From: Shigella phage Moonfish
Sequence record: PQ613263
Length of the DNA: 64,000 bases
Direction: 5' to 3' (one strand)
Shown here: positions 12,401 to 61,786 of the stretch, piece by piece
Numbering within the stretch: the first letter of the stretch is position 1
Layout: each line of letters starts with the position of its first letter
The notes under the pieces: generated by a model
Seen by the model: the letters and a program-made list of their open reading frames with translations, nothing else
The model's database searches: none
Told to the model about the DNA's origin: nothing
Program-made: the position numbers and the translations under genes

Positions 12401-15400
12401 ATACCATCCAGGAAGTAGCTGAAACCAAAACAGAAATGGAAACAGTGTTCCCCGTCTATAACAATGAAAAGACACCGAACCAGTTCCTGAAAGCATTTAC
12501 CCTACCAGAAGAACCTAAGTCTCGTACCATTGGTTCTGAGTCTCCGTTGACTGATGTTAAGCAAGCACTGTCTTCTGTTGCTCGCTTTGAAGCATTCACT
12601 CAAAAAGAAAATAACGCTCTCACAGGTGATGTGATTAAGCGTTATCAGGACTTAATGGACTTTGGTGAAACTCTGAAGACTACTTTGTCTGAACGACTGG
12701 CTAAGTTCCTTGCTAACAAAAATGTCGGTAAACGTTTTGCAGAAGGTACGGAAGCTAACCGTTGGGTAGGTGGCAAACTACTGAATATCGTTGAACAAGA
12801 TGGTGACACCTTTAAGTTCAATGACCAGTTGTTAGAGACTGCTGTGCTTGCTGGTCTGCAATGGCGACTAACTGCTACACAGAATGCTGCTGTTAAAGAC
12901 ATGAAAGACGTAGCTGCTATTACGGGTGTAGAAGCATCTCTGTTACCAGAAGGTATTCTGGCTGAGTTCGAGAATGCTCAGACTCTGGTTGAAGCTACTA
13001 ACTCACTGGCTCAGAAGATCGAATCCTACTGGGGTTTGAACCGTAACCCTAATGCACCACTGGGTTATACCAAGGGTATCCCAATGGCAATGGCTACAGA
13101 GATTCTGTCTTCCCTCATTGAGATGGGTGAAGTTAAAGAGTCTATGCTGGATGTGTCTGAGATTGACCCAGATTCCAATAAGACTGTCGGCCTGTATACC
13201 ATTGAGAAGCTGGATGACAATGATGCCATTAACAAATTCCCTACTGCTATTGAGGAAGCTGTCCTCTTAGAACCAGAAGAGAAAATGTATTTCGGTGACG
13301 ACATTCCTTCCGTGGCTCAAACTCAATTACGTAATCCTGCTGTTAAGAATACCCCGGAACAGAAAGCTGCTCTGAAAGTAGAACAGGCTACTGAGTTCCG
13401 TGTACACATGCCGATGGTTAACTTCTATGAAGCTATGGGCCGTGACAACATACTGGAATTGATGGGTGCTGGTTCTCTTAATCCTGAACTGTTGAACGTG
13501 AACACTGCTAAGTCACTGGAGGGTAAAAACCTGTCCGTGTCCATGGCATATGATTCCTTGTTTGGTGTAATCAATCAGATTAAGGAACAGGAGAATGGAC
13601 TAGATACACCTATCCACTATGGCTACAACATGACCCGTGTAGGTCGTATGCAGATGCTTGGTAAGAACAACCCACAGTCCAGCAAACTGGTACGTGAAGC
13701 AATCCTGCCAACCTTCTCTACTATTGACTTGAGTAATGAAAACAGCCAAACGTTCTCTGACTTCCAGTTAGGTCTGGCTCAGGCATTGGGTATCAAGGTT
13801 CATAATATGTCCCGTGAAGCTATGTCTGAAAAGCTGACCAAAGCTTTGGAAGGTAATCTGAAACCTGCTGTTGATATGATGGTTGAGTTTGATAAGTCTG
13901 GTCACTTACCTGCTGATGCAGTTGATATTCTGAAGACATCTCTGGGTGGCGATAAATCATTCGTAGCTCTCATGGCTCTTATGGAATATGCCCGTTACCT
14001 GAACAGTGATGACCGTGCCAACTTTAATACCCCTCTGTACGTTGAAGCCGATGGTGTAACCAACGGTCCGATTAACGCAATGGTATTAATGACTGGTGGT
14101 AAGTTCACTCCAGACTGGATTAAGAATACTGCTAAAGGTGGTTTGTTCTTCGGTAAAGCTGGTAAGACTATGAACGAACATCGTTCACAGGATGACAGTG
14201 TTGACTTGTATGAAGCATCCACCAATGGTCTGCAACAAGCATTGGGTGAATTGCGTAGTACTTACCGTAACAACGTTCCTGTTATGAGCCAGATGAACCA
14301 TCTCCAGAAGTTAATGGACCTGTTCATCAAAGACTTTAACTTGAATGAAGACGGTACTTTGGACCTGAAACGTGGTATCGCTAAAAACCCACTGACTATT
14401 ACCATCTATGGTTCTGGTGCACGTGGTATTGCTGGCAAGATGGTTAGTGCAATTACTGACACCATCTATGAACGCTTCAGTGACGTTCTGCAAGCACGTG
14501 CTGCTGACCCTAGCATTTCCCCAGCTATGGCGATGTTTGGTAAGGAGGCTGCGTCTGAGGCTGATGCTCAGGCTATGCTGGATACTTTCCTTACTTCTAT
14601 GGAAGCACTGACTGGTAATGTTCCAGTTATGCGTAAAGGCGAACTGTCTATTCAACAGGCAGAAGGTGCTCTGACTGGTAAGTTAGACCCTCAGAAGTTT
14701 ACTGTATCTGGTAATGCCTTGAAGAACCTACAAGAGAACATGCTTCACTTGTTCGTTGAACCAATGCGTACAGGTATCCGTAATACTGTTGGTGAAGGTC
14801 TGATGCACTCTACTGAGAACTTGCAGAAGGCTACTCAGATTCAGTCTCTGGTATTGCAGGATATGTTCCAACAAGCAGTACAGGCTAAACTGGCAGAAAA
14901 AGAAAATGACCCAACGTGGAAGAAGGGTGATTTCTTAACACAGAAAGAACTGAATGAAATTCAGGAATCATTATCTCCACTGGCTCCAATGATTGAGACT
15001 GGCGCACAGACTTTCTACATTGCTGGCAGTGAGAATACTGATGTTGCTAACCAAGTACTGGCTACCAACTTAGATGACCGTATGCGTGTGCCAATGAGCA
15101 TCTATGCCCCGTCACAAGCAGGTGTTGCTGGTATTCCATTTATGACCATCGGTACTGGTGATGGCATGATGATGCAGACCCTTTCTACTATGAAAGGTGC
15201 TCCGAAGAATACCCTGAAAATCTTTGATGGCATGAACATTGGTATCAATGACATCACTGATGCAAGCCGTAAAGCTAATGAGGCTGTATACACTTCCTGG
15301 CAGGGTAACCCTATCAAGAATGTTTATGACTCCTTCGCTAAGTTCATGAAGAATGTAGACTTCAGTAAACTGTCTGATGAAACCAAACAGGCTATCGCTA

Positions 15401-18400
15401 AGTCTGCTCTGGAATACGACCAGCGTGAAGGTGCTACTGATGACCTGTTACGTGTTGGTGCTGAACAGATTGAACGTAATCTGCGTAACATTGCTCTGGG
15501 TGTAGATATTCGCCATAAAGTAATGAACCAGGTACAGACTACTGTTGACCAGATGGCTGCTGTAGGTGCTCCTTATGTGAACAACGGTAAAATTTCTCTG
15601 GAAGGTCTGACTGTAGACCAGCAAGTAGCTAAGCTGAACGAACTGTTTGATGCTGAATTAATCAAGCGTCGTGATGCAGTACGTGCTGCTAAAGCAGAAC
15701 CAGTGAAAGAAGTACCGGCGATGGAGCAGGTTGGTCGTGTGCTGAAGTCTGGTGTACGTCTGCTGTCTAACACTGCTATTACTAAGCTGGCTAAAGAGAT
15801 GTCTCCTGAACAGCAAGCAGTATTGAAAGAAGTACAGAACTCCCTTGCTGCTAAAGACTACAAGGTTGTTTATGGTACTCCTGCTCAACTGGATGCTTAC
15901 GCTATTGAGAAGAACATTACTCGCCCAGCACCGGAAGATATTGAAGCTGCTGAAGCTGGTAATGCATACGGCTGGACTAACTTTGATGATAAGACCATCT
16001 ACTTAGTTACTCCTTCCTTAGAGACTCTGGTTCATGAATTGGTACATGCTTCTACTTTCGAATCTGTACTGGCTCACTATGAAGGTACTCCTAATGAAGC
16101 AGTCCAGAATATTGAAGACCTGATGAACCAGTTCCGTGCTCTGGATGTTAAGGATGAATCTCCGGCAGTACGTGAAGCATATGCTGATGCTCTCAATACC
16201 ATTAATGGTCACTTGTCTAATGGCTTTATTGAGCCAGCAATGGCTAAAGCTGCTGCACTTAATGAGTACATGGCATGGGGTTTAACCAACCGTGAACTGA
16301 TTGGTAAGCAGAAGAAAACCACTGCACTTAAGGCCATGGTTCAGTCTGTATATGAAGCAATTAAACGTCTGGTATTTGGGCGTAAGAAAGCTCCTGCTAA
16401 TGCAGATGATATGTTCTCTGGCTTACTGTTTAACTCCTCCGTAGTTATGCGTGGGCAAGCTCCTACTGCTGCTGTGGCTAAGGACACTACCTTGTTCCAT
16501 AGCAAAGCATATGGAGATAACACTCGTCTGGAAGAGTTAGGACAGACCTTCGATAAGCTGATTACTAACTACATTGGTTCAGAACCAGTACAGCAAGTAA
16601 TCCGTAAAGGTAAATTCTCTGATGCAGTAGTGAATGCAACAAAAGTAACTCGTGATGTTCAGGCTCATGGTTTCACTATGAATATGCAGGAACAGCGTCT
16701 CTTTACTAACATTGTTGCTGCACTGGCTACTGAAGCTGCTATTAGCCCAGCTGCTCTGGCTCGTGCACAGGAATACTATGCACACGTTACTAAGAACCTG
16801 ACCGTTGAAGCATTCATGGCTGACCCGGAAAGTACTAACCCTGCTGACCGTTACTACGCACAGCAGAAGTTCGATACCATCATGGGTGCTAACAATATTG
16901 AGTTTGATGCACAGGGTCGTTCTTCCTTACTGCCTACCTTCGTGGCTCTGGCAATGGTAAGTGAAGATGTACGTAACGTACTGGCTGGCATTCCTGTTAT
17001 GAAAGCAGATAAGCAATCTGGTAATACTGTTGATGCAATGCTGACTAACATTGGTACTGCTGCAATGGCTAGCCTGAATGCTCGTGTAGCAGGAGACACT
17101 AAAGCTACCAACGTGCAAGAAGGTATGGATGCACTGGCTCAGACAATCATGCAGACTAGCCTCAATGCACAGTCTTTCTACGATTCCGTTGCTACTCCTA
17201 GTGGTAATGCTATTGACCGTGCTAACCAGTATCTGGTGGACTCTATTGATGTACTGTCTACTCGTGCTTTAGATGGTGCACGTAATGTTGCAGCTAATAC
17301 CAAGAACCCATTGGTTAAAGGTGCTGCTCATGCTGCACAACTGGTAGCTGCTATTGCTACGGAGAAGAATGGTGCAATCGTAGCCGAAGGTGTTATGGCT
17401 GCAATGAACCAGGGTAAGGTATGGCAACCCTTCCATGACTTAGTTAATGACTTAACTGGTCGTACTAAGAGCAATGCTTCTGTATACGATTTAATTAAAG
17501 CAGTACGTGCACAGGTACAAGCTGACCGTCAGCAATTCCGTGAACATCTGCCTACCACTATCGCATCTAAGTTCAGCCGTAAGCTGACTAATGATGAGTG
17601 GAAAGCAATGCATACCGGCATGGGTAAAACTGATTTAGCTGTACTGCGTGACACTATGTCACTGGCTGAAATCCGTGACCTGTTGTCTGACCAGAAGATT
17701 GTTGACCGTGAAGTGAACAAGCTGGAAGCAGATTTGCAGAAACAAGCTGGGCGTAACTGGCCACTGATTAACCGTAAATCTAAGCAACTGGCTCAGTACA
17801 TGATTAACGGCACAGTTGGTAATAATCTGCTGCGTAATGCTACTGCAATCTCTCGTATGCTGGGCGAACGTCAGTCTGCACGTTCTACTGTAGATGTAGC
17901 TCAACTGGATAAACTTATTACCCTGTATGCACTGGAAGCAATGAGCAAAGCTGACCGTGAGCTGTTATCTTCCCTGGCTCAATCAGAAGTTGATGGAATG
18001 GATTTTGCTACTTCTTATCTGGTTGGACAGCGTAAAGATGAAATGGCTAAAGCTAAAACTGATAGCCGTGCAACATTGAACCAGTATAAAGGGCATATCC
18101 CTAGCGAGACTAAGCAGGGTGTTAACCTGATTGTTGCTGAAGATAGCCAGTTTGCTGATTTGATTGAGAAATCCTATGTACGTCTGGGTACTTATCAGGG
18201 TAGTTCTGCTAACCGTGGGCCAGCACGTAGCTACTACTTCGCACCAGTACAGGCACAGGCTCCATTCTCACAGGGCATCTTACAGAACGTTCGTAATACT
18301 GCTGGTGGTGTAGATCTTGGTACAGGCTTTACGATGGGTTCTATGGTAGCAGGTCGTATCACAGACAAGCCTTCAGTAGACCGTATCACTAAAGCTCTGG

Positions 18401-19836
18401 CCCGTGGTGAACGCGGTAATGAACCACTGCTGCCTGTATACGATGACAAAGGTAATGTAGTTGCATATGAGCAGTCTATAGACCCTAACATGCTGAAGCA
18501 CATTGAGGGTGAGAACCATCTTGCACGTGCAATCGGTGTATGGCGTGGTCGTCAGGTGGAAGAAGCTAAGGCTCAGCGTTTTAATGACATGCTGATAGAG
18601 AACCTGCATAGCATGTATGAGAACGACATTAAGATGTCTGCCTCCAATAAGTCCCAGTACGTGAACCTTCTTGGTTCTAAACTGGACCCAGTAACTGCTG
18701 ATGCTCTTAAGCTGATGAACAGTGAGACACGTCAGAAAGCAGAAAGCCTGTTTGGTAATGGTGAACTGTGGGTACGTCGTGACATGCTTAATGATGCTCT
18801 TGGTTATCGTGCAGCTTCTGTAGGTGATGCCTGGTCTGGTAATTCTCGTTGGTCCCCAGAAACGCTGGATACCTTCAAGAAAGCTATGTTAGGTGTGTTC
18901 GGCAATCGTGCTTATAAGTACACAATGGGAGGTGAGAACCTGGTACAGAACTTAGTTAAAGAAGCTAAGACCCTGATTGTAATTAAGTCAGTAGTCGTAC
19001 CTGCTGTTAACTTCTTGGCTAACCTTTACCAGATGGTTGCTCGTGGTGTACCAGTTAAGAACATTGCTAAGAGCATTCCACAGAAAACTGCTGAGATTAA
19101 CCAGTACCTGAAATCTCGTCTGCGTCAGGTAGATGCAGAAGCAGAATTACGTGCAGCTACCAACCCGAACCAGATTCGTAAGCTTAAGGCTGAGATTCAA
19201 TCCATCTCTGATAGCCATAAGCGTATGAGTATCTGGCCTCTGCTGGAAGCTGGTGAGTTCTCTTCAATTGCAGATGCTGGTATTGGGCGTGATGACATCC
19301 TGATTACCGAAGGTAAACTTCAGGAATATATGGATAAACTGGCTGATAAGTTGCCTAAGTCTGTACGTACTGCTGGGCGGTATGCACTCATCACTAAGGA
19401 TACTGCTCTTTTCCAGGGTATCCAGAAAACCGTTGAGTACTCTGACTTTATCGCTAAAGCAATCATCTATGATGAATTGACTCAGCGTAAAGGCAAGACT
19501 CGTGAAGAAGCACTTGGACGTGTAACTGAAGAGTTTGTTAACTATGACCGTCTGCCTGGTCGCTTCCGTGGATATATGGAAAGCGTTGGTTTAATGTGGT
19601 TCTACAACTTTAAGATTCGTTCTGCAAAAGTTGCAGTATCCATGATTCGTAATAACCCAGTACATGCAGCAATGGCTATGTTGGCTCCAGCTCCTACCAT
19701 GTTTGGTAACGTTGGTCTGCCTATTCAGGACAACGTATTTAGTATTGCTGCTAAGGGTGGGCTGGATTCTTCTTGGGGCTTTGGTCAGGGGCTGCGTGCT
19801 CACAACCTGAACCCTTGGTTGAACCTGGTAAACTAA
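9466..19836 (+). CDS. virion-encapsidated giant RNA polymerase (vRNAP, N4 gp50-like)
   Basis: Single uninterrupted 3456-aa ORF (10.4 kb) at the end of the virion gene module; a protein of this size in this position is the hallmark of N4-like phages. All antisense ORFs inside it are short. Confidence 0.9.
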   Translation: MNRKHAMSTFDRLAGFADSITNAKQVDVSTATSQKQAAQGQSPFQLTPENAYNLQTGRVGNLGTGAFEPGSLQADFTQASPLEIINKYGNEKGLQILNSRANAADVVRQDLSKQRTNAEAFGDTLSGVGLGVANTLGGIAALGTGLVNDNAGASIASGMDWLNEGVRNLQSDALNATRKVVQNQNQISAQKNQKLYEQDIKNGENDLVASLSRIGRDAFDSVANTLDNGMAATDGLSEGVGSLFTAGPLIRGVSALGKVMVGGDKAVRGITLAAELGSRPAQVALSAGRVAAPAIAIGGMEAGGAYQQTASEIMKMSHQELASKSPVYQQHIADGLPPDEARRQTASETGITAAGLTAPVAAATGPLVSRFELNPLRVGSLAGAGSNMLRETVEEGIQSGFGQFAQNTAIKENVDASRDTLKGVGEQAGLGALYGFGSAGVAQAPGATVKAAGAATAPVVRTTLAGASLVGNALAKAASPITNILVQRGEEVAKRNEQASPVADATVNAAAQEATAQAEQAQATVQEAVDAMDISPEEKAAATQYAADLTQAMNFDPVELEQANPVIREAVSGSTNRVEAIQKMADLVNTAEDPNVQMEAAIQMYDNIMSMDSFINRDPGALANLEQGSPAATIVDQFSGLMANVQNTPKVLRAFRAIHSMIQEQAEAGKLKATEEANQAQANNIAMAADVSPEVLDADSVNMVLKHASEGKITLGNRQRAALQSAAALLQGAREFDAKAEELGLRPQDIVSKQIKTDESRSNEGQYSALQHAKRIRSAYNSGNFDLAYAYLSDFMKFAQHMQNKVGALNEHLISGNADKNKSVHYQALSPSREWVRSRTGLGVNPYDTKSVKFAQQVGLEAKTVADIANALATAYPELNVSHVKVTSLDSRLNKPAAQVVKEFRQGGLDATQSQQTNEPVNQVDESPAPVQEDTTTVQPKAKPVVENKTAPTKETSPKTEEVSTTKSETVEATLTNEDTIQEVAETKTEMETVFPVYNNEKTPNQFLKAFTLPEEPKSRTIGSESPLTDVKQALSSVARFEAFTQKENNALTGDVIKRYQDLMDFGETLKTTLSERLAKFLANKNVGKRFAEGTEANRWVGGKLLNIVEQDGDTFKFNDQLLETAVLAGLQWRLTATQNAAVKDMKDVAAITGVEASLLPEGILAEFENAQTLVEATNSLAQKIESYWGLNRNPNAPLGYTKGIPMAMATEILSSLIEMGEVKESMLDVSEIDPDSNKTVGLYTIEKLDDNDAINKFPTAIEEAVLLEPEEKMYFGDDIPSVAQTQLRNPAVKNTPEQKAALKVEQATEFRVHMPMVNFYEAMGRDNILELMGAGSLNPELLNVNTAKSLEGKNLSVSMAYDSLFGVINQIKEQENGLDTPIHYGYNMTRVGRMQMLGKNNPQSSKLVREAILPTFSTIDLSNENSQTFSDFQLGLAQALGIKVHNMSREAMSEKLTKALEGNLKPAVDMMVEFDKSGHLPADAVDILKTSLGGDKSFVALMALMEYARYLNSDDRANFNTPLYVEADGVTNGPINAMVLMTGGKFTPDWIKNTAKGGLFFGKAGKTMNEHRSQDDSVDLYEASTNGLQQALGELRSTYRNNVPVMSQMNHLQKLMDLFIKDFNLNEDGTLDLKRGIAKNPLTITIYGSGARGIAGKMVSAITDTIYERFSDVLQARAADPSISPAMAMFGKEAASEADAQAMLDTFLTSMEALTGNVPVMRKGELSIQQAEGALTGKLDPQKFTVSGNALKNLQENMLHLFVEPMRTGIRNTVGEGLMHSTENLQKATQIQSLVLQDMFQQAVQAKLAEKENDPTWKKGDFLTQKELNEIQESLSPLAPMIETGAQTFYIAGSENTDVANQVLATNLDDRMRVPMSIYAPSQAGVAGIPFMTIGTGDGMMMQTLSTMKGAPKNTLKIFDGMNIGINDITDASRKANEAVYTSWQGNPIKNVYDSFAKFMKNVDFSKLSDETKQAIAKSALEYDQREGATDDLLRVGAEQIERNLRNIALGVDIRHKVMNQVQTTVDQMAAVGAPYVNNGKISLEGLTVDQQVAKLNELFDAELIKRRDAVRAAKAEPVKEVPAMEQVGRVLKSGVRLLSNTAITKLAKEMSPEQQAVLKEVQNSLAAKDYKVVYGTPAQLDAYAIEKNITRPAPEDIEAAEAGNAYGWTNFDDKTIYLVTPSLETLVHELVHASTFESVLAHYEGTPNEAVQNIEDLMNQFRALDVKDESPAVREAYADALNTINGHLSNGFIEPAMAKAAALNEYMAWGLTNRELIGKQKKTTALKAMVQSVYEAIKRLVFGRKKAPANADDMFSGLLFNSSVVMRGQAPTAAVAKDTTLFHSKAYGDNTRLEELGQTFDKLITNYIGSEPVQQVIRKGKFSDAVVNATKVTRDVQAHGFTMNMQEQRLFTNIVAALATEAAISPAALARAQEYYAHVTKNLTVEAFMADPESTNPADRYYAQQKFDTIMGANNIEFDAQGRSSLLPTFVALAMVSEDVRNVLAGIPVMKADKQSGNTVDAMLTNIGTAAMASLNARVAGDTKATNVQEGMDALAQTIMQTSLNAQSFYDSVATPSGNAIDRANQYLVDSIDVLSTRALDGARNVAANTKNPLVKGAAHAAQLVAAIATEKNGAIVAEGVMAAMNQGKVWQPFHDLVNDLTGRTKSNASVYDLIKAVRAQVQADRQQFREHLPTTIASKFSRKLTNDEWKAMHTGMGKTDLAVLRDTMSLAEIRDLLSDQKIVDREVNKLEADLQKQAGRNWPLINRKSKQLAQYMINGTVGNNLLRNATAISRMLGERQSARSTVDVAQLDKLITLYALEAMSKADRELLSSLAQSEVDGMDFATSYLVGQRKDEMAKAKTDSRATLNQYKGHIPSETKQGVNLIVAEDSQFADLIEKSYVRLGTYQGSSANRGPARSYYFAPVQAQAPFSQGILQNVRNTAGGVDLGTGFTMGSMVAGRITDKPSVDRITKALARGERGNEPLLPVYDDKGNVVAYEQSIDPNMLKHIEGENHLARAIGVWRGRQVEEAKAQRFNDMLIENLHSMYENDIKMSASNKSQYVNLLGSKLDPVTADALKLMNSETRQKAESLFGNGELWVRRDMLNDALGYRAASVGDAWSGNSRWSPETLDTFKKAMLGVFGNRAYKYTMGGENLVQNLVKEAKTLIVIKSVVVPAVNFLANLYQMVARGVPVKNIAKSIPQKTAEINQYLKSRLRQVDAEAELRAATNPNQIRKLKAEIQSISDSHKRMSIWPLLEAGEFSSIADAGIGRDDILITEGKLQEYMDKLADKLPKSVRTAGRYALITKDTALFQGIQKTVEYSDFIAKAIIYDELTQRKGKTREEALGRVTEEFVNYDRLPGRFRGYMESVGLMWFYNFKIRSAKVAVSMIRNNPVHAAMAMLAPAPTMFGNVGLPIQDNVFSIAAKGGLDSSWGFGQGLRAHNLNPWLNLVN

Positions 19837-21494: not shown

Positions 21495-21654
21495 TAGTAG
21501 CTTTTAATAGATAGCTGTATTTGAGCATTATAGTCTGCTCATACTCACACTCTTCTGTCGAAGAATATGTTTACAATACCTAGAGTGCCGGACTGTCTTA
21601 CCGGCATTGTCTTTAGAGTGCTAAGCAATCAGGACTATGTTCTCTATTAATGGG

Positions 21655-21728
21655 TGCCCACTACTGGATTTGAACCAGTGACTTTCCGATTATTAGTCGG
21701 TTGCTTTCCCCGTCTAAGCTAAGCGGGC
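21655..21728 (-). tRNA. tRNA gene (manual fold); anticodon loop CUAAUAA, anticodon AAU if numbering is canonical (Ile-type; A34 is unusual)
   Basis: Folded by hand on minus strand: acceptor GCCCGCT/AGTGGGC (one G.U), D-stem GCTT/AAGC with GG in D-loop, anticodon stem CCGA/UCGG, perfect T-arm ACTGG-TTCAAAT-CCAGT, discriminator A. Confidence 0.6.
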
Positions 21729-21929
21729 ATTGATAGGTGAGTCCTGCCAGGCTTTAACTGGCTCCTTCTTCGCAATCCTTACATACCCCTACATAATTAT
21801 TGCGTTAAGCTTTTTTGTTTAAGTTTAAGTGAAGGCGTTCTTGCTGACTCATAATTAGGTGAGGCGTTTGACGAATGACTAGTTCGTTACTACCTCGTTG
21901 TTTGCCATAAGTACCTGGCGACTTCAGGT

Positions 21930-51450: not shown

Positions 51451-51465
51451 AGCTGCGGAGCAGCT
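51451..51465 (-). promoter_or_regulatory. conserved GGA-triloop hairpin, candidate vRNAP-type early promoter
   Basis: AGCTGC-GGA-GCAGCT (6-bp stem, 3-nt loop) ~40 nt upstream of the RNAP II small-subunit start; identical 17-mer recurs at 54508-54524. Confidence 0.45.
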
Positions 51466-53313: not shown

Positions 53314-53512
53314 GATTCTTTCTCCTATTTAAATACATATCTAAACTATTCAAGAATAAAAAATAGGAGCCTCCTATTGGAGGACTCCTTACTATTTGAT
53401 ACATGGGTGATTGAAGGTAACAATCTTACGTACTGGTTCAGATGTCTGTTGCTTAGCAGCCAGACGCCCTTTCATCTTTTGTACGTCAGCTTTGGTTCCC
53501 ATGATTAATGAC

Positions 53513-53686
53513 TTACGCATGTTTAGTACTCCACATAAAGTTATAAGGTTTACCGTTACGTACAATTCTTACAGCCATTTGATAACCATTGATTTGTACA
53601 ACACCATAGTGTCTCTTTTGGTCACCAGTCTGGTTCCGTCTGAAGATACACTCTTCAATAGCATCATTGATATTAGTGAACATCAT
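53513..53686 (-). CDS. hypothetical small protein (57 aa, below track cutoff)
   Basis: AGAGGA RBS then ATGATG; its stop overlaps the start of a further 41-aa ORF (53395-53520). Confidence 0.3.
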   Translation of the reverse strand: MMFTNINDAIEECIFRRNQTGDQKRHYGVVQINGYQMAVRIVRNGKPYNFMWSTKHA

Positions 53687-53871
53687 TGGTTCCTCTTTGC
53701 AAACTCTTCTGCTTGTTGCTTGTAGTACTGAGTCATTGCTTTCTTGTGTTTAACACTAGCAATGAGACACTCGATAGTAACGAATGGCAGCTTAGCAATA
53801 AGCAGCCACTTTTGACGTAACTTCCAGCCTAGAAAGTAGAAGATTACACAGAAAGCGATGAAGTCTAACAT
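53683..53871 (-). CDS. small membrane protein
   Basis: 62 aa; hydrophobic N-terminus FIAFCVIFYFLGW. Confidence 0.35.
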   Translation of the reverse strand: MLDFIAFCVIFYFLGWKLRQKWLLIAKLPFVTIECLIASVKHKKAMTQYYKQQAEEFAKRNQ

Positions 53872-53982
53872 GGTTATTTCCTCTTCTAAGATAGCTCTAA
53901 TGGGATAGGTTTTAATTTTAGACCCCCTTCGTCGAAAGAGGCGTAAAAGTTAAACTTAGCTTATCGCATAGTTAAAATAAAA

Positions 53983-54002
53983 GGACTCCCCGAAGGGAGT
54001 CC
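53983..54002 (-). terminator. intrinsic terminator (minus strand)
   Basis: GGACTCCC-cgaa-GGGAGTCC hairpin with T-run on the minus strand. Confidence 0.55.
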
Positions 54003-54011
54003 AGTTGTTGA

Positions 54012-54398
54012 TTAGAAAGTCAGTTTACGAGCATATTTATTCTCATCGGCAGGAATAGATTCTTCCTGAGCCTTCACGCGTCTTAACTGAACTTGCAGGT
54101 TAATGATACCTTCTTCACCTGGTTCCAGGTTCTGAGCATATTCGATTAACTGTTCCAGCAAATCGTTCTGTGCACAACGCATAGCACGGAAGTCAGCATT
54201 GCTGCTATTAGTAGGCAGTGCTTCCTGAGTATCCAGTGGAATACCAGTAGGCAGAGAGATGAATTTCTCATCATCAGAGCCTTCATTAGCAACATAACCA
54301 ATGTTCAGCCAGAACTGAGCCTTAGGCTTAGCAGCTTTAGTTTCAGCAGTGGTAGCAGCAACGTTAGATTGACCGAAAGTGAATTTTTGAATAGACAT
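54012..54398 (-). CDS. hypothetical early protein
   Basis: Likely start at MSIQKF (GGAG RBS 8 nt upstream); the longer track ORF (to 54497) would begin inside the promoter-proximal leader. Confidence 0.5.
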
Positions 54399-54508
54399 TT
54401 TGTACTCTCCAGATAAATGATTGTTTGATTGATGGGTTTGTCTGTCGGTGACTAAACCCAAGAAAAGACTTAGGATTTCAATGATTAGTGGATGCATTTA
54501 CGTCCTCA

Positions 54509-54523
54509 AGCTGCGGAGCAGCT
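54509..54523 (-). promoter_or_regulatory. conserved GGA-triloop hairpin, candidate vRNAP-type early promoter
   Basis: AGCTGC-GGA-GCAGCT, identical to the element at 51451-51465 including one flanking A on each side. Confidence 0.45.
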
Positions 54524-54527
54524 ACTT

Positions 54528-54731
54528 TCAGACCGACTGCAATACTGACTTATCGTGAGGTAAGTCCTCAAGGGAGTTGAATACTTCTTCTGTGCTATCC
54601 AATCGGATACCAATGGATGGATCTTCAACCATTACACAGTTGTAATCAGTTGATTCATTTACTTTTTGTAACTCAAATCCACCATGTACAAAGAACTTTT
54701 CACCATCTTTAACGTCAACAAATGTAGCCAT
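54528..54731 (-). CDS. hypothetical small protein
   Basis: 67-aa ORF. Confidence 0.4.
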   Translation of the reverse strand: MATFVDVKDGEKFFVHGGFELQKVNESTDYNCVMVEDPSIGIRLDSTEEVFNSLEDLPHDKSVLQSV

Positions 54732-54785
54732 TTTATTACTCCAGTAGTTATAGGGATACCCAATAGAAGCGGAGCTTCTTGGTTT

Positions 54786-55139
54786 TTAAGACAAGCGTTT
54801 AAGTAATTCTGCCTTAGCAGACTCATACTCTTGTTTAGCTTTAGTGAGGTCAATGGTTGACTCACCCCAGTGAAGGATATCTATTGTATAGGTTGTAAGA
54901 ACATCGACTGCATCTTCGAAGCGAGCCAGTAGTTCTTCCTTATCAGGACCATCGAATTGTTCCCATTGCCATACATAACCGGATAACTTAACTGTTTCCC
55001 CTTTCTCAAAGTAAGGTTCTTCTCCAAATAGGAAAGTAGAATCTTCAGTTAATCGGATATGTTCTCCTTCCAATTCTCCTACGATAATTGTTCCAATAGG
55101 GATGTCAGAATTACCCCTGATACAACGGAATTTAGTCAT
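54786..55139 (-). CDS. hypothetical early protein
   Basis: 117-aa ORF. Confidence 0.5.
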   Translation of the reverse strand: MTKFRCIRGNSDIPIGTIIVGELEGEHIRLTEDSTFLFGEEPYFEKGETVKLSGYVWQWEQFDGPDKEELLARFEDAVDVLTTYTIDILHWGESTIDLTKAKQEYESAKAELLKRLS

Positions 55140-55200
55140 GATTTTCTATCCTAGAAGTAGATAGTTATCTACTTAGTCTATCTATCTAATGTTTATAAAA

Positions 55201-55220
55201 GGAGACTCCGAAGAGCCTCC
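55201..55220 (-). terminator. putative terminator/attenuator hairpin
   Basis: GGAGACTC-cgaa-GAGCCTCC imperfect hairpin; weak T-run. Confidence 0.35.
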
Positions 55221-55232
55221 ATATTTGATTTA

Positions 55233-55553
55233 CTATTTAGTCAGGATGTCGATTACTTTTGAATATTCTGCGTTATAGATACGAGCGTTCTCTGAATCTT
55301 TGCAGAATTCTTCGATACTTTTCTTACGCATAGTCTCGTTCATAGCTGTTTCTTCAGCTAATTTGTTTACGAATGTATGCATTTCTAATTTAGTACGGAT
55401 GGCTTGTTTCTCTGCCATAGTAGATACATATGAATTAAGCATACCTACTGCTTTAGTAGCTGTGCCGAATGTATCTGCAACAGTAGTAGCAGCTGAGTTA
55501 ACAGTACCCAGTAAAGTTCCTGCGGTCATACGTACAGTAGCGGTAGTAGTCAT
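55233..55553 (-). CDS. hypothetical early protein
   Basis: 106-aa ORF downstream of the hairpin at 55596-55610. Confidence 0.5.
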   Translation of the reverse strand: MTTTATVRMTAGTLLGTVNSAATTVADTFGTATKAVGMLNSYVSTMAEKQAIRTKLEMHTFVNKLAEETAMNETMRKKSIEEFCKDSENARIYNAEYSKVIDILTK

Positions 55554-55595
55554 GATGATAGCTCCAATAGTTGATGATAGGACGACATGTCCATA

Positions 55596-55610
55596 ACATG
55601 CGGAGCATGT
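55596..55610 (-). promoter_or_regulatory. GGA-triloop hairpin, candidate vRNAP-type early promoter
   Basis: ACATGC-GGA-GCATGT (6-bp stem, 3-nt loop, same C-GGA-G core) ~45 nt upstream of the 55553 start. Confidence 0.45.
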
Positions 55611-55711
55611 GTAACGTGTAAGGTGGGGTAGGGTAGTGGCTACAGGGTCAACATACCGGGGGGGATGGTTGAGTGTAAGGGTGTAGCCCCAGCCACACCA
55701 CTAAAGCTGAA

Positions 55712-55820
55712 CATAGCTATGATGAAATCCCTAAGAAAAAATATGAGAAGTACTTTCCCTATGCGACTACTGCTAGACATAGCTATCAACATTTTGACAT
55801 GCAAAAATATCATAGCTATC
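55712..55820. repeat. three copies of palindrome CATAGCTAT(G/C) phased 66 and 33 bp apart
   Basis: Copies at 55712-55721, 55778-55787, 55811-55820 in a 267-bp intergenic region upstream of the 55596 hairpin. Confidence 0.5.
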
Positions 55821-56147
55821 TCACTTATAAGCAGCTAAATAGGAGGGAGCATACACCAGGAATATGGATTGAAGGGTATCGCTCGATGTGAAGGTAAGGG
55901 TGTACTTATCAGTGTTCACATGCCAGGGGGAATGTACATATGTAGACCAGGGTAATTCCTTTCCTGGTTCCTGAAGTTTTACAATAACTTTCCTGCCTAG
56001 TATTAGAGCCAGACCTTTCACTTCATGAAGGGTTTGCTCATCTGGTACTAGGATAATAGGAGTGAGTCTACCTGGTTCGAGGTCTTGTAAGGTTGTATGG
56101 GCAGTGGGATTGGGTCCACCAGCATAACCTATCTTAGTGAGTTTCAT
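55821..56147 (-). CDS. small early protein, member of paralogous family (ILVPDEQ..HE..GL motif)
   Basis: 108 aa; core IILVPDEQTLHEVKGLALILG shared with 56848, 57456, 57736, 58336 ORFs. Confidence 0.5.
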   Translation of the reverse strand: MKLTKIGYAGGPNPTAHTTLQDLEPGRLTPIILVPDEQTLHEVKGLALILGRKVIVKLQEPGKELPWSTYVHSPWHVNTDKYTLTFTSSDTLQSIFLVYAPSYLAAYK

Positions 56148-56150
56148 TTG

Positions 56151-56528
56151 TTATACCCCGTAATCTATCTTAACCAGTCTACCTTTGTAGTAACCAAAGT
56201 TCTTAGGGAAGGCATCATACTCAAAGAACTCTTTACCGAGTGGCTGTGGTTCATTGGCTGCATCTAAGTATAGCTTCTCTAACTCTACCCAGAATAAACC
56301 AGTATGTTTCACAGGCTTAGCCCTGTGCATGATTAGAACCAGACCAAATCTATTAGAGTACTTGATTGGGCATAGGAACTTATTGTTGTAATCCTTCCAC
56401 TGTCCTTCAGTTAGATTGCTTAACATACCTTGTACGAAGTGTTTCCATGTAGAGAGGATAGGGAACTTAATTGCGTAATGACGAGTGAGTATTACCCATC
56501 TGGTTCCACCGGAGCGTATTAGTTTCAT
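56151..56528 (-). CDS. hypothetical early protein with kinase-like Gly-loop/AIK and C-terminal DYG motifs (speculative)
   Basis: 125 aa; SGGTRWVILTRHYAIKFP ... HRAKP ... KIDYGV. Confidence 0.45.
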   Translation of the reverse strand: MKLIRSGGTRWVILTRHYAIKFPILSTWKHFVQGMLSNLTEGQWKDYNNKFLCPIKYSNRFGLVLIMHRAKPVKHTGLFWVELEKLYLDAANEPQPLGKEFFEYDAFPKNFGYYKGRLVKIDYGV

Positions 56529-56851
56529 TTGGTAGCCTTGAATTGTGGTAACTGATTAAGAAGACTATCCATGTAGTAGCAGTATGCCTCGGAGGATTCG
56601 TCATTAATTGGAAGACCAATGAATCCAAAGGTATAAATGCAGAAGTGATTAAGCTCATGAACCAAGGTTATCTTACTATCATCAAATATACCCATAAGCA
56701 CAAAGTTGTCCGCTATGTAGCAGGTTTTTCCTTTAAGGGTTGTTTCCTTTTCTGGTTCAGTACCACGGTATGCTTTATGCTTCTTAGAGAATGTAGCCCA
56801 GTCATATACTACTTCTAACTGTACTGGATAGGGGGATGTGTTTAGTTTCAT
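56525..56851 (-). CDS. small HExxH-motif protein (mini-zincin candidate)
   Basis: 108 aa; VHELNHF followed by acidic ESSEAY. Confidence 0.45.
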   Translation of the reverse strand: MKLNTSPYPVQLEVVYDWATFSKKHKAYRGTEPEKETTLKGKTCYIADNFVLMGIFDDSKITLVHELNHFCIYTFGFIGLPINDESSEAYCYYMDSLLNQLPQFKATK

Positions 56852-57132
56852 TGTCTTTCCTTATAGATTAGGGTGTTATCCTCGAAGGATAGAATGTACT
56901 TGTCTGTATTGAGATACCAAGGACTGAAGCTCCCCTGCCAGGACATAGGTGCACTTGGTTCAAGTAGATGTACTTCTGCTTTCTTATTGTATAAGAAAAG
57001 TAATCCTTGTAGTTCATACAAGGACTGTTCGTCTGGAACCAGGATAAGTATATCAGCATCCATGCGAGCTACTTCTTTATGGTGGGAGCAAACATTTCCG
57101 AATTCTCCTGAATAATTTTTATAGATAACCAT
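56848..57132 (-). CDS. small early protein, paralogous family member
   Basis: 94 aa; ILILVPDEQSLYELQGLLFLY ... SPWYLNTDKYILSF parallels the 55821 ORF. Confidence 0.5.
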   Translation of the reverse strand: MVIYKNYSGEFGNVCSHHKEVARMDADILILVPDEQSLYELQGLLFLYNKKAEVHLLEPSAPMSWQGSFSPWYLNTDKYILSFEDNTLIYKERQ

Positions 57133-57452
57133 TAGCAGCTCCCGTCGCTAGATAAATATGAGGTAGAAGGATAGAGGGTAATGAGTCTACCAGTAAGAGT
57201 AGTAGCTACCATAGGTTCGCTGGAGGAGTAGATGTATACCCTCTTACCTTCTGGTATCTCAATAGAGGTATCTATCTTAACAAAGTTAATAGGTACACCT
57301 AACATTAGACAAGAACCAATGAACTCATCTGCTTCCTCACTGGGTTCATAATAGACAGTGACACCATCCAGTTTACCTTCGAAGAAATCCCTCTTAGTTA
57401 GACCAGGCCATCTAATGTTAGAACTGTATGCAGCTAATGTGTAGAAGTGCAT
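57132..57452 (-). CDS. hypothetical early protein (possibly distant member of same family)
   Basis: 106-aa ORF. Confidence 0.45.
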   Translation of the reverse strand: MHFYTLAAYSSNIRWPGLTKRDFFEGKLDGVTVYYEPSEEADEFIGSCLMLGVPINFVKIDTSIEIPEGKRVYIYSSSEPMVATTLTGRLITLYPSTSYLSSDGSC

Positions 57453-57455
57453 AGC

Positions 57456-57770
57456 TTACTTCCTTACATAGTAATAACGGTATTCGTCATTCTCATAACG
57501 ACTAACCCATTGGTAGTCATCAGACACCAACATATATGGGATAGGGTCACCTGCACTGTAGTCGGTATAGACAGAAGGAGGAACAATGCATACAACCTTA
57601 CGGGCATTACCTGCTAAGAAGAGTTGACCCCTTACTTCGTGATAATCTTCTAAAGTAGGAACCAGGATTACTTGGTGAGGATTACTGTTCATGACTTCTT
57701 CTAAAGTGAAGTCAGTTGTGTACAGTAACTTCTCTTTAGTAAAACTGAGGACGGTCATTATGAATTTCAT
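57456..57770 (-). CDS. small early protein, paralogous family member
   Basis: 104 aa; VILVPTLEDYHEVRGQLFLAG. Confidence 0.5.
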   Translation of the reverse strand: MKFIMTVLSFTKEKLLYTTDFTLEEVMNSNPHQVILVPTLEDYHEVRGQLFLAGNARKVVCIVPPSVYTDYSAGDPIPYMLVSDDYQWVSRYENDEYRYYYVRK

Positions 57771-58134
57771 GATGGATTCTCCTTCCTTTGGGAAGAGGTC
57801 TGAAGTAAATGGAAAGTGTTTTATTAAATACGTTATGGTCAGCTATCAATTCCCAACCATCAATCTTATAGAAGCGTACACCGGGAAAGAATGTAGTGAA
57901 GTCACTATACTTAGTGAGGTCATACACCCTTGGTTCAGTAAGTATCTCGGTATTGAGTTGCAGGTTGGATAAGAAAAAAGAACCAATAACTTCATGGGAC
58001 TCTTCACAATCAGGTAAGAAGACTTGCTGCCATGGAGCAATGAACTTACTTACTGCTTCTGGTTCTCCTAAGAGATAAGGCTCCTGCCCTCGTAGTACTC
58101 CGGTAATATCAAAATCAAAACAGTAGATGCTCAT
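57736..58134 (-). CDS. small early protein, paralogous family member
   Basis: 132 aa; VFLPDCEESHEVIGSFFLSN; GGAGG RBS. Confidence 0.5.
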   Translation of the reverse strand: MSIYCFDFDITGVLRGQEPYLLGEPEAVSKFIAPWQQVFLPDCEESHEVIGSFFLSNLQLNTEILTEPRVYDLTKYSDFTTFFPGVRFYKIDGWELIADHNVFNKTLSIYFRPLPKGRRIHHEIHNDRPQFY

Positions 58135-58160
58135 AATTGCATACCTCCAGAAAAAGAAAT

Positions 58161-58186
58161 GGGGTAGAGCCTCTCGACTCTACCCC
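58161..58186 (-). terminator. hairpin plus T-run (terminator/attenuator) in early region
   Basis: GGGGTAGAG...CTCTACCCC 9-bp stem followed on the minus strand by ATTTCTTTTT, immediately before the RBS of the 58134 gene. Confidence 0.5.
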
Positions 58187-58242
58187 TTACCGTTTTCAAT
58201 CACGGGTCAGTTCATCCCCCTAGGTACTTATGTACCATTAGA

Positions 58243-58255
58243 CCTACGGAGTAGG
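58243..58255 (-). promoter_or_regulatory. GGA-triloop hairpin (fourth copy of the C-GGA-G hairpin class)
   Basis: CCTAC-GGA-GTAGG 5-bp stem, 3-nt loop. Confidence 0.35.
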
Positions 58256-58335
58256 AAAGGAGCCGGGGAACCCTGACTGTAGAAGTTATTAACTCTTTAC
58301 GAGTACCGCCACTGTCTACTAGGCGGTATGACTAA

Positions 58336-58626
58336 TCACATCATCTCCGTCATCCGAACGCTATCTTTGCTTCGTTTGATGGAGACACTATGAGGTAATT
58401 TTGTGAAGAACACAATAGCAGAAATAGCTTTTTCTAAAGAGTAACTTTTTGCAGGTTCTTTGACGGTAACCCCTGAAACGTTTTCAAGGAGGAGTATACC
58501 GGACAACTCGTGGTATTCCTGCTCGGTCGTGGTAATGATGATATCTCCTGGCAGGAACCCAGCCTTCTTGTGGTCAAGTTCTACATATCCGTCAAAGGTA
58601 TCATCGCTTTTGGTAAATAGTCTCAA
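58336..58626 (-). CDS. small early protein, paralogous family member (TTG start)
   Basis: 96 aa; IIITTTEQEYHELSGILLLEN; AGGAG RBS 9 nt upstream of a TTG start. Confidence 0.45.
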   Translation of the reverse strand: MRLFTKSDDTFDGYVELDHKKAGFLPGDIIITTTEQEYHELSGILLLENVSGVTVKEPAKSYSLEKAISAIVFFTKLPHSVSIKRSKDSVRMTEMM

Positions 58627-58797
58627 GGTAGTACTCCTTGGGGAATAAGGTCATCGGAACATTACATACTATTTAGTATCATGAACTTTTTCTATATCAT
58701 GACTAAAGTGTAACTGTATGGTATGGTTTCTTCAAGGGGTATCTCACCCCAAGAAAAGAATCTTCGTTAATAGACATAACTTTGTAGAGAGATAAGT

Positions 58798-59487
58798 ATG
58801 AGTGAGCTAACTAAGCAGCAGATCATTAATGCCTTACCTGCTAACTTCAAAAACAGTGTGACCCAGGAGTTAGTAGATACAATTAACAACATAACCCAAG
58901 ACCAACTGGTTGCTGAGTCCTTCCGTGAAAACTTCATCTCTTACTCTGGTGTTATGAAAGAGGGTAAGTTTAAGACACAGGACTACATGAATGCAGTTCA
59001 GTATGTGACTTACAAGCACATGGGCTACTCAAATAAAGAAGCCTACTTTAAAACATTCCCCAACCGACAAGCAGAACTTGTAGCACGGGGAACCAGTGAG
59101 AAAGATATTAGTGCTTATGTATCTGCTTATCACAGGGGTAAGTTAGTTAACCTCATCATGGAACAAAGTTTGGTTCCAGTGTGGATTGTGAACCAGGACA
59201 ATTATCAGAAGGCAATCAATGTTCAGGTTGAACTGATGACTACAGCAGCAAGTGAGAAAGTAAGATGTGATGCAGCTAACTCTATCCTTACTCACTTAGC
59301 TAAACCAAAAGACCAGGTGACTAATATCAACCTGGACTTGAGGGAGAACTCTGGGTTGACTGACCTCAAGGCAACACTTGCTGCATTAGCTGAACAACAA
59401 ATTAATGCAATCAATAGTGGTGTACCTACTAAAGAGATTGCTGGTTCTAAACTAGTACGTGCAGATGAGGACATTACAGATGTCTGA
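58798..59487 (+). CDS. first gene of late operon; terminase small-subunit candidate (positional)
   Basis: 229-aa ORF immediately upstream of and overlapping the terminase large-subunit gene. Confidence 0.4.
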   Translation: MSELTKQQIINALPANFKNSVTQELVDTINNITQDQLVAESFRENFISYSGVMKEGKFKTQDYMNAVQYVTYKHMGYSNKEAYFKTFPNRQAELVARGTSEKDISAYVSAYHRGKLVNLIMEQSLVPVWIVNQDNYQKAINVQVELMTTAASEKVRCDAANSILTHLAKPKDQVTNINLDLRENSGLTDLKATLAALAEQQINAINSGVPTKEIAGSKLVRADEDITDV

Positions 59488-61069
59488 GTTAATTAAACAG
59501 GAACTAGATGAATGGCTAGACCAGGTGGACTACTCCCACCTTAATTCTTCTAACTATGTTCCCAGTCAGTTCGCTCTTACCTTTGCCAACTTTATTAAGT
59601 TGGTTAATGGCAAAGAAGGGGAATCCAACAAAACACCTCCGGTTCACCTGAAGATGCTGGATAAGATGATTAGTCCGAACCAGTATGTAGTTAACCTATG
59701 CTTCCGTGGTGCTGGTAAGACTGCTGTGTTCATGGAATACTTTACCTTGTTCTTAGCAGTGTTTGGTCACTTGCCAAGTCTAGGTAAGGTAGAAGGAATG
59801 ATTTACGTATCTGACTCAATGGATAACGGTGCTAAGTCTGCACGTAAGAACATTGAGTTTCGATACAAGAACAGTGAGTTCCTTCAGCAATGGATACCTG
59901 AAGCTACCTTTACGGATAACCTATTAGAGTTCCGTAATGCAGAGGGTCATCGACTGGGTGTTAAGTTGTTTGGTGCTAAGACTGGTCTTCGCGGTACGAA
60001 GATATATGGTAAGCGTCCTACACTCTGTGTACTGGATGACTTGATTAGTGATGGTGATGCTAACTCTAAGACAAGCATGGAAGCTATTAAGGATACTGTT
60101 TATAAAGGTGTGAACCATGCCCTTGACCCGACACGTCGTAAAGTAATCTTCAATGGTACTCCCTTTAATAAGGAAGACATTATCATTGAGGCAGTTGAGT
60201 CTGGTGCATGGGATGTCAACGTATGGCCTGTGTGTGAGAAGTTCCCCTGTAGTGAGGAGGAGTTCCAGGGTGCATGGGATGATCGTTTCTCTTACGACTA
60301 CATCAAAGCCCAGTACGATATGGCAGTTAAGACCGGTAAGCTGGCTGGCTTCTATCAGGAACTCATGCTTCGCATTAGTTCTGAGGATGAACGTCTTGTA
60401 CAAGATAGCGAAATTAAATGGTACAGCAGACAGCAACTATTAAAGATGAAGTCTTGCTACAACTATTACATTACAACTGACTTTGCTACTTCGGAGAAAC
60501 AGACCAGTGACTACAGTGTCATATCAGTTTGGGCTTATAGTTCTAATGGAGATTGGTTCTGGGTTGATGGTGTGGCTAATCGTCAGCTTATGGATAAAAA
60601 CTTTGACGACTTGTTCCGTCTGGTTCAAGAGTACCGACCACAAAACGTTGGTGTTGAAGTCACGGGACAACAAGGTGGATTCATTTCCCTTCTTCAAAAA
60701 GAAATGATTAACCGTAACGTCTTCTTTAACTTTGCATCCTCTGAGGGTGGTAAGCCGGGCATACGTCCTGTAACCTCTAAGCTGTCACGCTTTAACCTGG
60801 TAGTTCCATGGTTCAAGGTTGGTAAGATGTACTTCCCGGAAGAGTTGAGAGATACAACTATTATGGGTCTGTTCATGGGCCAGCTTAAACTAGCTACCAT
60901 TAATGGAATCAAAGGTAAGGATGACTGTATTGATACTATCTCCATGCTGGGTTATCTAAATCCCTGGAAACCACAAGCCGGTATGACTATGGTGGATAAC
61001 AAGGGCGACCCGATGTGGGACGAGGAAGAAGAAGATAGTGTTAACCCACTACGTTCATACATTGTGTGA
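59459..61069 (+). CDS. terminase large subunit
   Basis: 536 aa; N-terminal ATPase with Walker A CFRGAGKTAV and Walker B-like CVLDDLISDGD; C-terminal nuclease-like region. Confidence 0.75.
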   Translation: MQMRTLQMSELIKQELDEWLDQVDYSHLNSSNYVPSQFALTFANFIKLVNGKEGESNKTPPVHLKMLDKMISPNQYVVNLCFRGAGKTAVFMEYFTLFLAVFGHLPSLGKVEGMIYVSDSMDNGAKSARKNIEFRYKNSEFLQQWIPEATFTDNLLEFRNAEGHRLGVKLFGAKTGLRGTKIYGKRPTLCVLDDLISDGDANSKTSMEAIKDTVYKGVNHALDPTRRKVIFNGTPFNKEDIIIEAVESGAWDVNVWPVCEKFPCSEEEFQGAWDDRFSYDYIKAQYDMAVKTGKLAGFYQELMLRISSEDERLVQDSEIKWYSRQQLLKMKSCYNYYITTDFATSEKQTSDYSVISVWAYSSNGDWFWVDGVANRQLMDKNFDDLFRLVQEYRPQNVGVEVTGQQGGFISLLQKEMINRNVFFNFASSEGGKPGIRPVTSKLSRFNLVVPWFKVGKMYFPEELRDTTIMGLFMGQLKLATINGIKGKDDCIDTISMLGYLNPWKPQAGMTMVDNKGDPMWDEEEEDSVNPLRSYIV

Positions 61070-61075
61070 GGAACC

Positions 61076-61786
61076 ATGCAGAAATTATCGGAAGTATACC
61101 GTGGCTTGGCACTAAGTACATTGAAGGGTACTGGCTCAGTCACGGATGATAGATTAGGTATTGAACCAGATAGTAAGCCGGAGATACTGGCAGCTATTAA
61201 TGAAGGACTGGTACGACTGCATAGTCGTTTCCCCCTTAAGACTAATAGCTGCATTGTGGAGATGAAGGAAGGACGTACTGATTATCCCTTACAATCAAAG
61301 TATGCTTACTCCAAGTTTACTAAGCCTACTCTTGAGATTCAGTATCCCTACATCATGGATGGGTTCATGAAACCTTTCCAGGATGATGTTATTAAAATCT
61401 TAAATGTGTTTGATAACTCTGGGAATCGACGTAGACTGAACGACGATTCAGACCCCCGTGCTATCTTCACCCCACGGCCGGATACTATTCAGTGTATGCG
61501 ACCTCGACACTTCGAGGCACTTAATGTAACGTATCAAGCTAAGCACCCAGTGCTTACGGGTGATGAAGAACAGGAAGTTGATTTAGCTGATACGCTGATG
61601 ACAGCACTTCATAACTGGGTGGGTTATCGTTACCACACTGGTTTGAATACTCCTGAAGCTAACGCTAAGGCAGCTGAGTATCTGCAAACGTATGAAAGCA
61701 TCTGTGGTGAGGTTGTTGATTACGACCTGGCTAATGGAAGTATTTCAATTACCGAAACTAAATTTGAACAACGAGGATGGCGATGA
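61076..61786 (+). CDS. virion structural protein (N4 gp67-like by synteny)
   Basis: 236-aa ORF following terminase. Confidence 0.5.
   Translation: MQKLSEVYRGLALSTLKGTGSVTDDRLGIEPDSKPEILAAINEGLVRLHSRFPLKTNSCIVEMKEGRTDYPLQSKYAYSKFTKPTLEIQYPYIMDGFMKPFQDDVIKILNVFDNSGNRRRLNDDSDPRAIFTPRPDTIQCMRPRHFEALNVTYQAKHPVLTGDEEQEVDLADTLMTALHNWVGYRYHTGLNTPEANAKAAEYLQTYESICGEVVDYDLANGSISITETKFEQRGWR

Follow-up and report, generated by a model that had tools for sequence, protein, structure and literature searches.

The divergent gp69|gp70 spacer of an N4-like Shigella phage as a probable internal control region, with a predicted genome end 2.9 kb away

The divergent junction and its flanking genes

The window analysed here is a stretch of 64,000 nucleotides from Shigella phage Moonfish (PQ613263), and the feature under study is the spacer at 58627-58797, from which the homologues of N4 genes gp70 (minus strand) and gp69 (plus strand) diverge. 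With the ORF ends at 58626 and 58798, the spacer is exactly 171 bp long; it is AT-rich and near-invariant within Gamaleyavirus. Its GC content is 35.1% compared with 43.5% for the window, within the lowest 1.7% of all 171-bp windows. The region around it was matched in 66 phage records, nearly all of them G7C-like.

On the plus strand, the spacer is followed by the gp69 homologue (58798-59487, 229 aa; PHROG 2109, E=1e-105), which opens the rightward late packaging operon and in some relatives bears the annotation small terminase. When the PDB was searched with this protein sequence there was no hit, so no relative of solved structure was found. The large terminase, homologous to N4 gp68, lies at 59459-61069 (plus strand); it scores 22.8 bits for Pfam Terminase_6C against a cut-off of 22.6, and relatives are annotated alike. 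It is followed by an adaptor-family ORF at 61076-61786 (plus strand), whose match is just below the family cut-off.

On the minus strand, the gp70 homologue (58336-58626, 96 aa; PHROG 7213, E=5e-35) has the sequence AAGGAG followed 7 nt on by a TTG start codon. Its N-terminal half is about 60% identical to that of the five relatives aligned. A strong intrinsic terminator, with an 11-bp stem containing 7 G-C pairs and then a T run, is found after the gene at 58161-58186 (minus strand) and is also annotated in PhAPEC5. The gp70 homologue is probably a single-gene transcription unit.

The rest of the window shows what kind of phage this is. A 3456-aa ORF at 9466-19836 (plus strand) is within the size range of the giant virion RNA polymerase (RNAP) of N4-like phages (about 3500 aa) and falls under the "virion RNA polymerase" annotations of relatives; the major capsid protein and others were matched likewise. 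Alignments of the first 25 kb to 24-32N, phi G17, PhAPEC5 and Mimir124 cover 95-98% of that length at 92-94% identity. The window thus belongs to a G7C-like N4-like coliphage (Schitoviridae, Enquatrovirinae, Gamaleyavirus), in reversed orientation with respect to the N4 reference. It begins in the virion structural block with the capsid and virion RNAP genes, carries a minus-strand gene block from about 20.3 kb to 58.6 kb, resumes plus-strand genes from 58.8 kb and ends inside a gp66-like tail gene. Since its start and end lie about 7 kb apart in relatives, the unit length should be about 71 kb. A single tRNA-Ile (anticodon AAT) was located at 21651-21729 (minus strand); three tRNAs, with tRNA-Ile (AAT) among them, are reported for relatives of the UE type (PMC11927229).

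Eight ORFs make up a right-end cluster that runs from 58626 down to 55821, all of them in PHROG families of unknown function. Besides the gp70 homologue, they are the gp71 homologue (57736-58134, named from annotated relatives), the homologues of G7C gp71.1 and gp71.2, and ORFs of 94, 108, 125 and 108 aa, these seven together occupying 55821-58134 on the minus strand. About 1.3 kb of the cluster (55850-57150) is extra when compared with G7C. It was found that five of the eight ORFs (gp70, gp71, gp71.1, the 94-aa ORF and a 108-aa ORF) are paralogous, with pairwise BLAST E values from 1e-4 to 1e-17 and a shared motif of the type ILVPDEQxxHExxGxxFL, and they constitute a tandemly duplicated family. 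A Pfam search of the right-end ORFans gave nothing above the cut-off. In the extra 1.3-kb segment, the 125-aa ORF at 56151-56528 (minus strand) matches only the C-terminal part of PHROG 4301 (positions 39-167 of 225), and its hit to DUF3440 stays below threshold. The gene may be truncated or a fragment.

Between gp70 and gp71 there is a conserved structured non-coding region at 58135-58335 (minus strand), which includes the terminator. It is 95% identical to relatives as against 71-84% for the flanking genes, and its consensus fold has 10 pairs with compensatory changes. The fold contains a CCGCC-N11-GGCGG hairpin, present in N4 too, and a GGTAC/GTACC hairpin that has become GATAC/GTATC by compensatory change, with the terminator next to it. 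An Rfam scan of 53500-59500 at E<=1 returned no match. This region may represent either a small RNA or an extended, structured 3'UTR.

Virion RNAP promoters and the early region

The early promoters of N4 consist of a 5-7 bp stem with a 3-nt loop and a GC-rich heptamer centred at -11, together with a template purine at -11, G at -10, G at -8 and C at +1, and they are confined to the left end, which is the first DNA to enter the cell (PMC4496689). A scan of the window for perfect hairpins of this kind found four sites, all on the minus strand between 55610 and 51465, all with the core GC-tcc-GC (GCTCCGC), 6-bp stems and G at +1. The count of four is to be compared with a mean of 0.01 in 300 first-order Markov simulations, and the heptamer occurs nowhere else on the minus strand of the window. 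When the same pattern was applied to the first 6 kb of N4, exactly three sites were returned (nt 90, 559 and 4548), while G7C gave four. All four sites of the window follow every N4 rule, and their number is that of G7C rather than the three of N4 P1-P3.

The outermost site, ACATGC-tcc-GCATGT at 55596-55610 (minus strand), is taken as P1, with a predicted +1 G at 55592. Counted from the left end mapped in the next section, the hairpin would occupy nt 88-102, as in Gamaleyavirus phages, and its +1 would be nt 105, compared with 107 in N4 and 105-106 in G7C, Mimir124 and 24-32N. Its stem is CATGC/GCATG where both N4 and G7C have GTTGC/GCAAC, which is a compensatory change. The second site, AGAAGC-tcc-GCTTCT (54765-54779, minus strand; predicted +1 54761), has a stem, GAAGC/GCTTC, identical to that of N4 P2. 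The remaining two share the sequence AGCTGC-tcc-GCAGCT: one lies upstream of the gp2 homologue (54509-54523, minus strand; predicted +1 54505), and the other, the equivalent of N4 P3, lies upstream of the RNAPII subunit genes (51451-51465, minus strand; predicted +1 51447).

Between 55700 and 58800, spacer included, no GCTYCGC heptamer was found on the minus strand. A hairpin with a tcc loop does occur at 58255, in the gp70-gp71 region, and was rejected as a virion RNAP promoter: it has neither the -8G nor the +1C, and Bp4, Mimir124 and 24-32N carry cta as the loop. As P1 is the first promoter and this interval holds none, early transcription is predicted to begin at about 55592 and not at 58626. 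The first true early gene is the gp1 homologue at 55233-55553 (minus strand); PF26891 (Phage_N4_Gp1) is assigned to an identical protein encoded on other contigs, and the terminator scan placed an intrinsic terminator after the gene at 55220-55201 (minus strand). The true early region, comprising gp1, gp2 and the RNAPII subunits, does not begin until about 55600, after the first virion RNAP promoter. Our proposal is that the injected virion RNAP would start early transcription at P1, 105 nt inside the left end, and at the three hairpins further in.

These results separate the claims that the original prediction had made about the genes. It had described minus- and plus-strand genes diverging across an A/T-rich spacer of 171 bp, and the ORF ends and composition agree with it. 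Its description of the plus-strand genes as late is borne out by their packaging and structural functions, with Terminase_6C above the cut-off and the adaptor match just below it; the window indeed starts and ends within late genes; and the assignment to the N4 type agrees with the giant virion RNAP ORF and the genome similarity to Gamaleyavirus. The description of the minus-strand genes at the spacer as early, on the other hand, is not supported. They are homologues of N4 gp70 and gp71 and of G7C gp71.1 and gp71.2, plus four ORFans, which form the right-end cluster. Early-class genes in N4 are the leftmost ones, downstream of a virion RNAP promoter, whereas the genes from 58626 to 55821 lie upstream of both the left end and P1. 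Being homologous to right-end genes and upstream of P1, they are not part of the early region.

For their timing, the Pseudomonas phage LUZ7 offers an analogy, as transcription of its right-end ORFans takes place at the middle stage (PMC9163698). Both the LUZ7 cluster (gp87-gp115) and that of the window consist of small right-end genes whose function is unknown, encoded on the same strand as early and middle genes and located past the start of the late operons; the two clusters have no sequence relation, and that of the window is far smaller. By this analogy, the right-end cluster is probably expressed at the middle rather than the early stage. Counting k-mers on the minus strand for a recurring middle-promoter motif yielded nothing informative.

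Genome ends and the terminal repeat

The left end of related genomes maps by homology to a single place in the window. N4 nt 4-411 align to 55691-55296 with 76% identity, and G7C nt 6-456 align to 55690-55242 with 92% identity, while the right-end unique DNA of G7C just before its right-hand repeat (71670-71753) aligns to 55849-55766. In base-level alignments, position 1 of the record corresponds to 55696 for 24-32N and Mimir124, 55695 for G7C and 55694 for N4, and the first 29 nt of the 24-32N left end, GTGGCTGGGGCTACACCCTTACACTCAAC, are identical in the window. A search with 54300-56200 found about 17 distinct isolates whose records start or end at 55694-55696, and many of the isolates matching this segment hold it twice, as their own terminal repeat. 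For several of these relatives the ends are known from experiment or reads. The ends of G7C were checked by Sanger run-off (cited in PMC11640937), the left end of Mimir124 obtained by PhageTerm agrees with G7C (PMC11640937), and PhageTerm gave a terminal repeat of 401 bp for four UE phages, UE-S5a/b and UE-M3/M6 (PMC11927229; also PMC11640937). N4 has repeats of 390-440 bp (Ohmori 1988, as cited in PMC3715699).

In 24-32N and Mimir124, the two copies of the repeat are 402 bp long and identical. The window has an identical copy of their inner boundary, TTCTGCAAAGATT|CAGAG, at 55295. We predict from the homology to the ends of relatives that a direct terminal repeat is present at 55295-55696 (minus strand), with its inner boundary at 55295 if it is of the 402-bp type, in which case it would end inside the gp1 homologue; the exact length is the least certain point of this prediction. 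Gamaleyavirus phages such as G7C, Mimir124, the UE phages and 24-32N have the repeat at both ends, in contrast to the one copy in the assembly of the window, where the segment is found once and right-end and left-end DNA are contiguous across it. A collapsed, circularised assembly or a concatemer junction would have this appearance, and we take the single copy to result from the assembler having merged the two copies and closed the genome into a circle. The Logan contigs of SRR32252115, which encode identical gp70-like and 108-aa proteins, run through 55696 to about 55572 with no stop at the terminus, and other contigs of about 70 kb are permuted likewise and are uninformative on the ends.

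Just outside the repeat, the right-end unique non-coding DNA (55697-55820, minus strand), part of whose sequence is conserved in N4, contains the palindrome ATAGCTAT three times (55712-55721, 55778-55787 and 55811-55820), always within 125 bp outside the predicted cut site. Relatives have two copies; a 48-bp insertion in the window, just outside the cut site, adds the third. Just inside the end, the window and N4 both have a 7-bp inverted repeat, GGCTACA...TGTAGCC. The palindromes and this inverted repeat are candidate terminase recognition signals.

We account for these observations by an internal position of the spacer. The region 58627-58797 would be a gp69|gp70 control region and not the site of a genome end, and the left physical end would be at 55696 (+/-2), read on the minus strand. 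Together with the promoter model, we assign this reading a probability of about 0.85, judged from homology and motif positions. Points that weigh against it are the 1160-bp repeat of G7C, the 48-bp insertion by the cut site, the 1.3 kb of genes that G7C lacks, and the weakness of the sigma-70 matches and of the leader fold described below.

The original prediction was correct in regarding the assembly as circularly permuted with its repeat collapsed, since right-end unique and left-end homologous DNA are contiguous and the repeat region is present once, but it had placed the ends at or near the spacer, which is 2.9 kb and eight genes away from the position at 55694-55696. A location of the physical ends and the collapsed repeat within or beside the spacer, as the border of early and late genes, is suggested by the divergence of the two transcription directions there on the circular map, by its AT-rich composition and by the records of nithesis, AN24P2 and Moo19, which are linearised at or near it. 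These origins are arbitrary, however: nithesis opens at the gp69 ATG, and the Moo19 paper contains no end determination. Moreover, N4, G7C, Mimir124, the UE phages and 24-32N all have their ends at the equivalent of 55694-55696, there is no virion RNAP promoter near the spacer, and the flanking minus-strand genes gp70 and gp71 are right-end genes in N4 and G7C, so that we find ends at the spacer hardly credible. A different question is whether the same left end (about 55696) goes with a longer repeat of about 1.1-1.2 kb, reaching to about 54530 before the gp2 homologue and including the second hairpin promoter. G7C is annotated with 1160-bp repeats whose two copies are identical in its record, and the window is divergent from both G7C and N4 over 54520-55241, where the boundary is not fixable by homology. 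Nevertheless, the repeats of Mimir124, the four UE phages and 24-32N, the closest relatives with read-based ends, are 401-402 bp, that of Bp4 is about 411 bp and that of N4 falls in the range given above (PMC3715699), and the window matches the 402-bp boundary sequence exactly. A long repeat is therefore possible though doubtful, and the short one is preferred.

Record origins in the genus are inconsistent. Apart from the 17 or so isolates opened at the true end, the nithesis record begins at the gp69 start codon, AN24P2 inside the spacer, Moo19 near gp70, and others elsewhere. Moo19 was considered as a counter-example to the end position and dismissed on the ground that its paper reports no determination of ends. 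Bp4 is labelled circular and circularly permuted, yet its record apparently has the repeat of about 411 bp at both ends.

Role of the spacer and comparison with related phages

The spacer is 93-100% identical in about 58 records. Across five aligned relatives, 58650-58797 is 96-100% identical, and N4 and Klebsiella N4-like phages retain about 80% identity over the gp69-proximal half (58703-58797). The late promoters of N4 are weakly sigma-70-like and require N4SSB (PMC4496689, PMC9163698). A strict sigma-70 scan with a threshold of 9/12 found no site in the spacer. A relaxed scan found a candidate weak late promoter with an extended -10 element, ATGACT-17-TGgTATGGT at 58699-58727 (plus strand), which matches at 8/12 positions plus the TG and has a predicted start at about 58734. 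All the aligned Gamaleyavirus sequences retain its TG-n-TAnnnT element. The best minus-strand candidate in the relaxed scan, TAGAAA-17-TAGTAT, lies about 33 nt before the gp70 start.

At the predicted start of the rightward transcript there is a motif, CAAGGGGT-N5-ACCCCAAGAAAAGAAT, at 58733-58761 (plus strand), which forms a 5-bp GGGGT/ACCCC hairpin and is found a single time in the window, where chance would give 0. A block in common with N4 extends from CTAAAGT through the GGGGT-N5-ACCCC hairpin to AAGAAAAGAATC; the stem and the block downstream match from the window to N4, where the loop is one base shorter. The stem is invariant among the sequences aligned, with no covariation, and the predicted gp69 5' leader is no more stably folded than its shuffled versions (z=0.24). 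The hairpin is probably the 5' end of the gp69 mRNA.

Judging from motif matches and conservation, the spacer most likely comprises weak host-type promoters placed back to back and a conserved 5' hairpin; both the sigma-70 promoters and the transcript ends are predictions. Rightward, a weak host sigma-70 late promoter would start at about 58734 a transcript of gp69, the large terminase and the downstream virion genes, which would open with the GGGGT/ACCCC hairpin. Leftward, the spacer would drive gp70 alone, and that transcript would be closed by the terminator at 58186-58161.

The position beside the terminase genes invites the proposal that the spacer is a replication origin, or the recognition site for packaging by gp69 and the terminase, as in many pac-type phages. 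Its identity, at 96-100% over 58650-58797 in the five relatives and 93-100% over its whole length across the genus, is above that of the neighbouring gp70; the hairpin block is unchanged in N4 except for the loop; and the composition is AT-rich. The spacer, however, has no iterons or long repeats (one 8-bp repeat is present twice), in phages with exact terminal repeats the cut is made at the concatemer junction, the site of other conserved palindromes, and the conservation is strongest in the gp69-proximal half, as expected of a promoter with its leader. We regard an origin or packaging site in the spacer as quite improbable. It is also unlikely that the spacer together with the 58135-58335 region represents an undescribed cis element or small RNA of Enquatrovirinae; if true, it would mean an element for packaging recognition or the start of replication by the terminase genes, or a regulatory RNA derived from the 3'UTR of the gp70 transcript.

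For an internal control region, which is the preferred reading, the practical value lies in annotation. The genome should be re-opened at 55696 on the minus strand instead of at the divergent junction, and its far end should receive an additional repeat of about 0.4 kb. Divergence of transcription does not mark the genome end in N4-like phages, and a variable cluster of small right-end genes lies between the two. The architecture of the junction is already documented for N4, G7C and relatives, so that the finding is an ordinary one and the current view of N4 biology is unchanged.

When compared with N4 (NC_008720), the gp69-gp70 region of nt 68895-69054 has the same flanking genes and the same divergent arrangement, with a spacer of 160 bp against 171 bp in the window. 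In the N4 record, gp69 runs leftward and ends at 68894, and gp70, gp71 and gp72 run rightward to 70076 of 70153 bp, the junction being internal, at 1.1 kb from the right end. Upstream of gp69, both phages have the block CTAAAGT...GGTTTCT.CAAGGGGT..ACCCCAAGAAAAGAATC, whereas the gp70-proximal half of the spacer is not alignable to N4. The G7C junction occupies 70041-70225, ahead of an annotated terminal repeat that starts at 71758; the distance from the gp69|gp70 junction to the right end is about 2.3 kb in Mimir124 and about 2.7 kb in 24-32N. In every relative examined the junction is thus 1.1-2.7 kb inside the right end, and the number of right-end genes that follow it is three in N4 and 4 in G7C compared with eight in the window.
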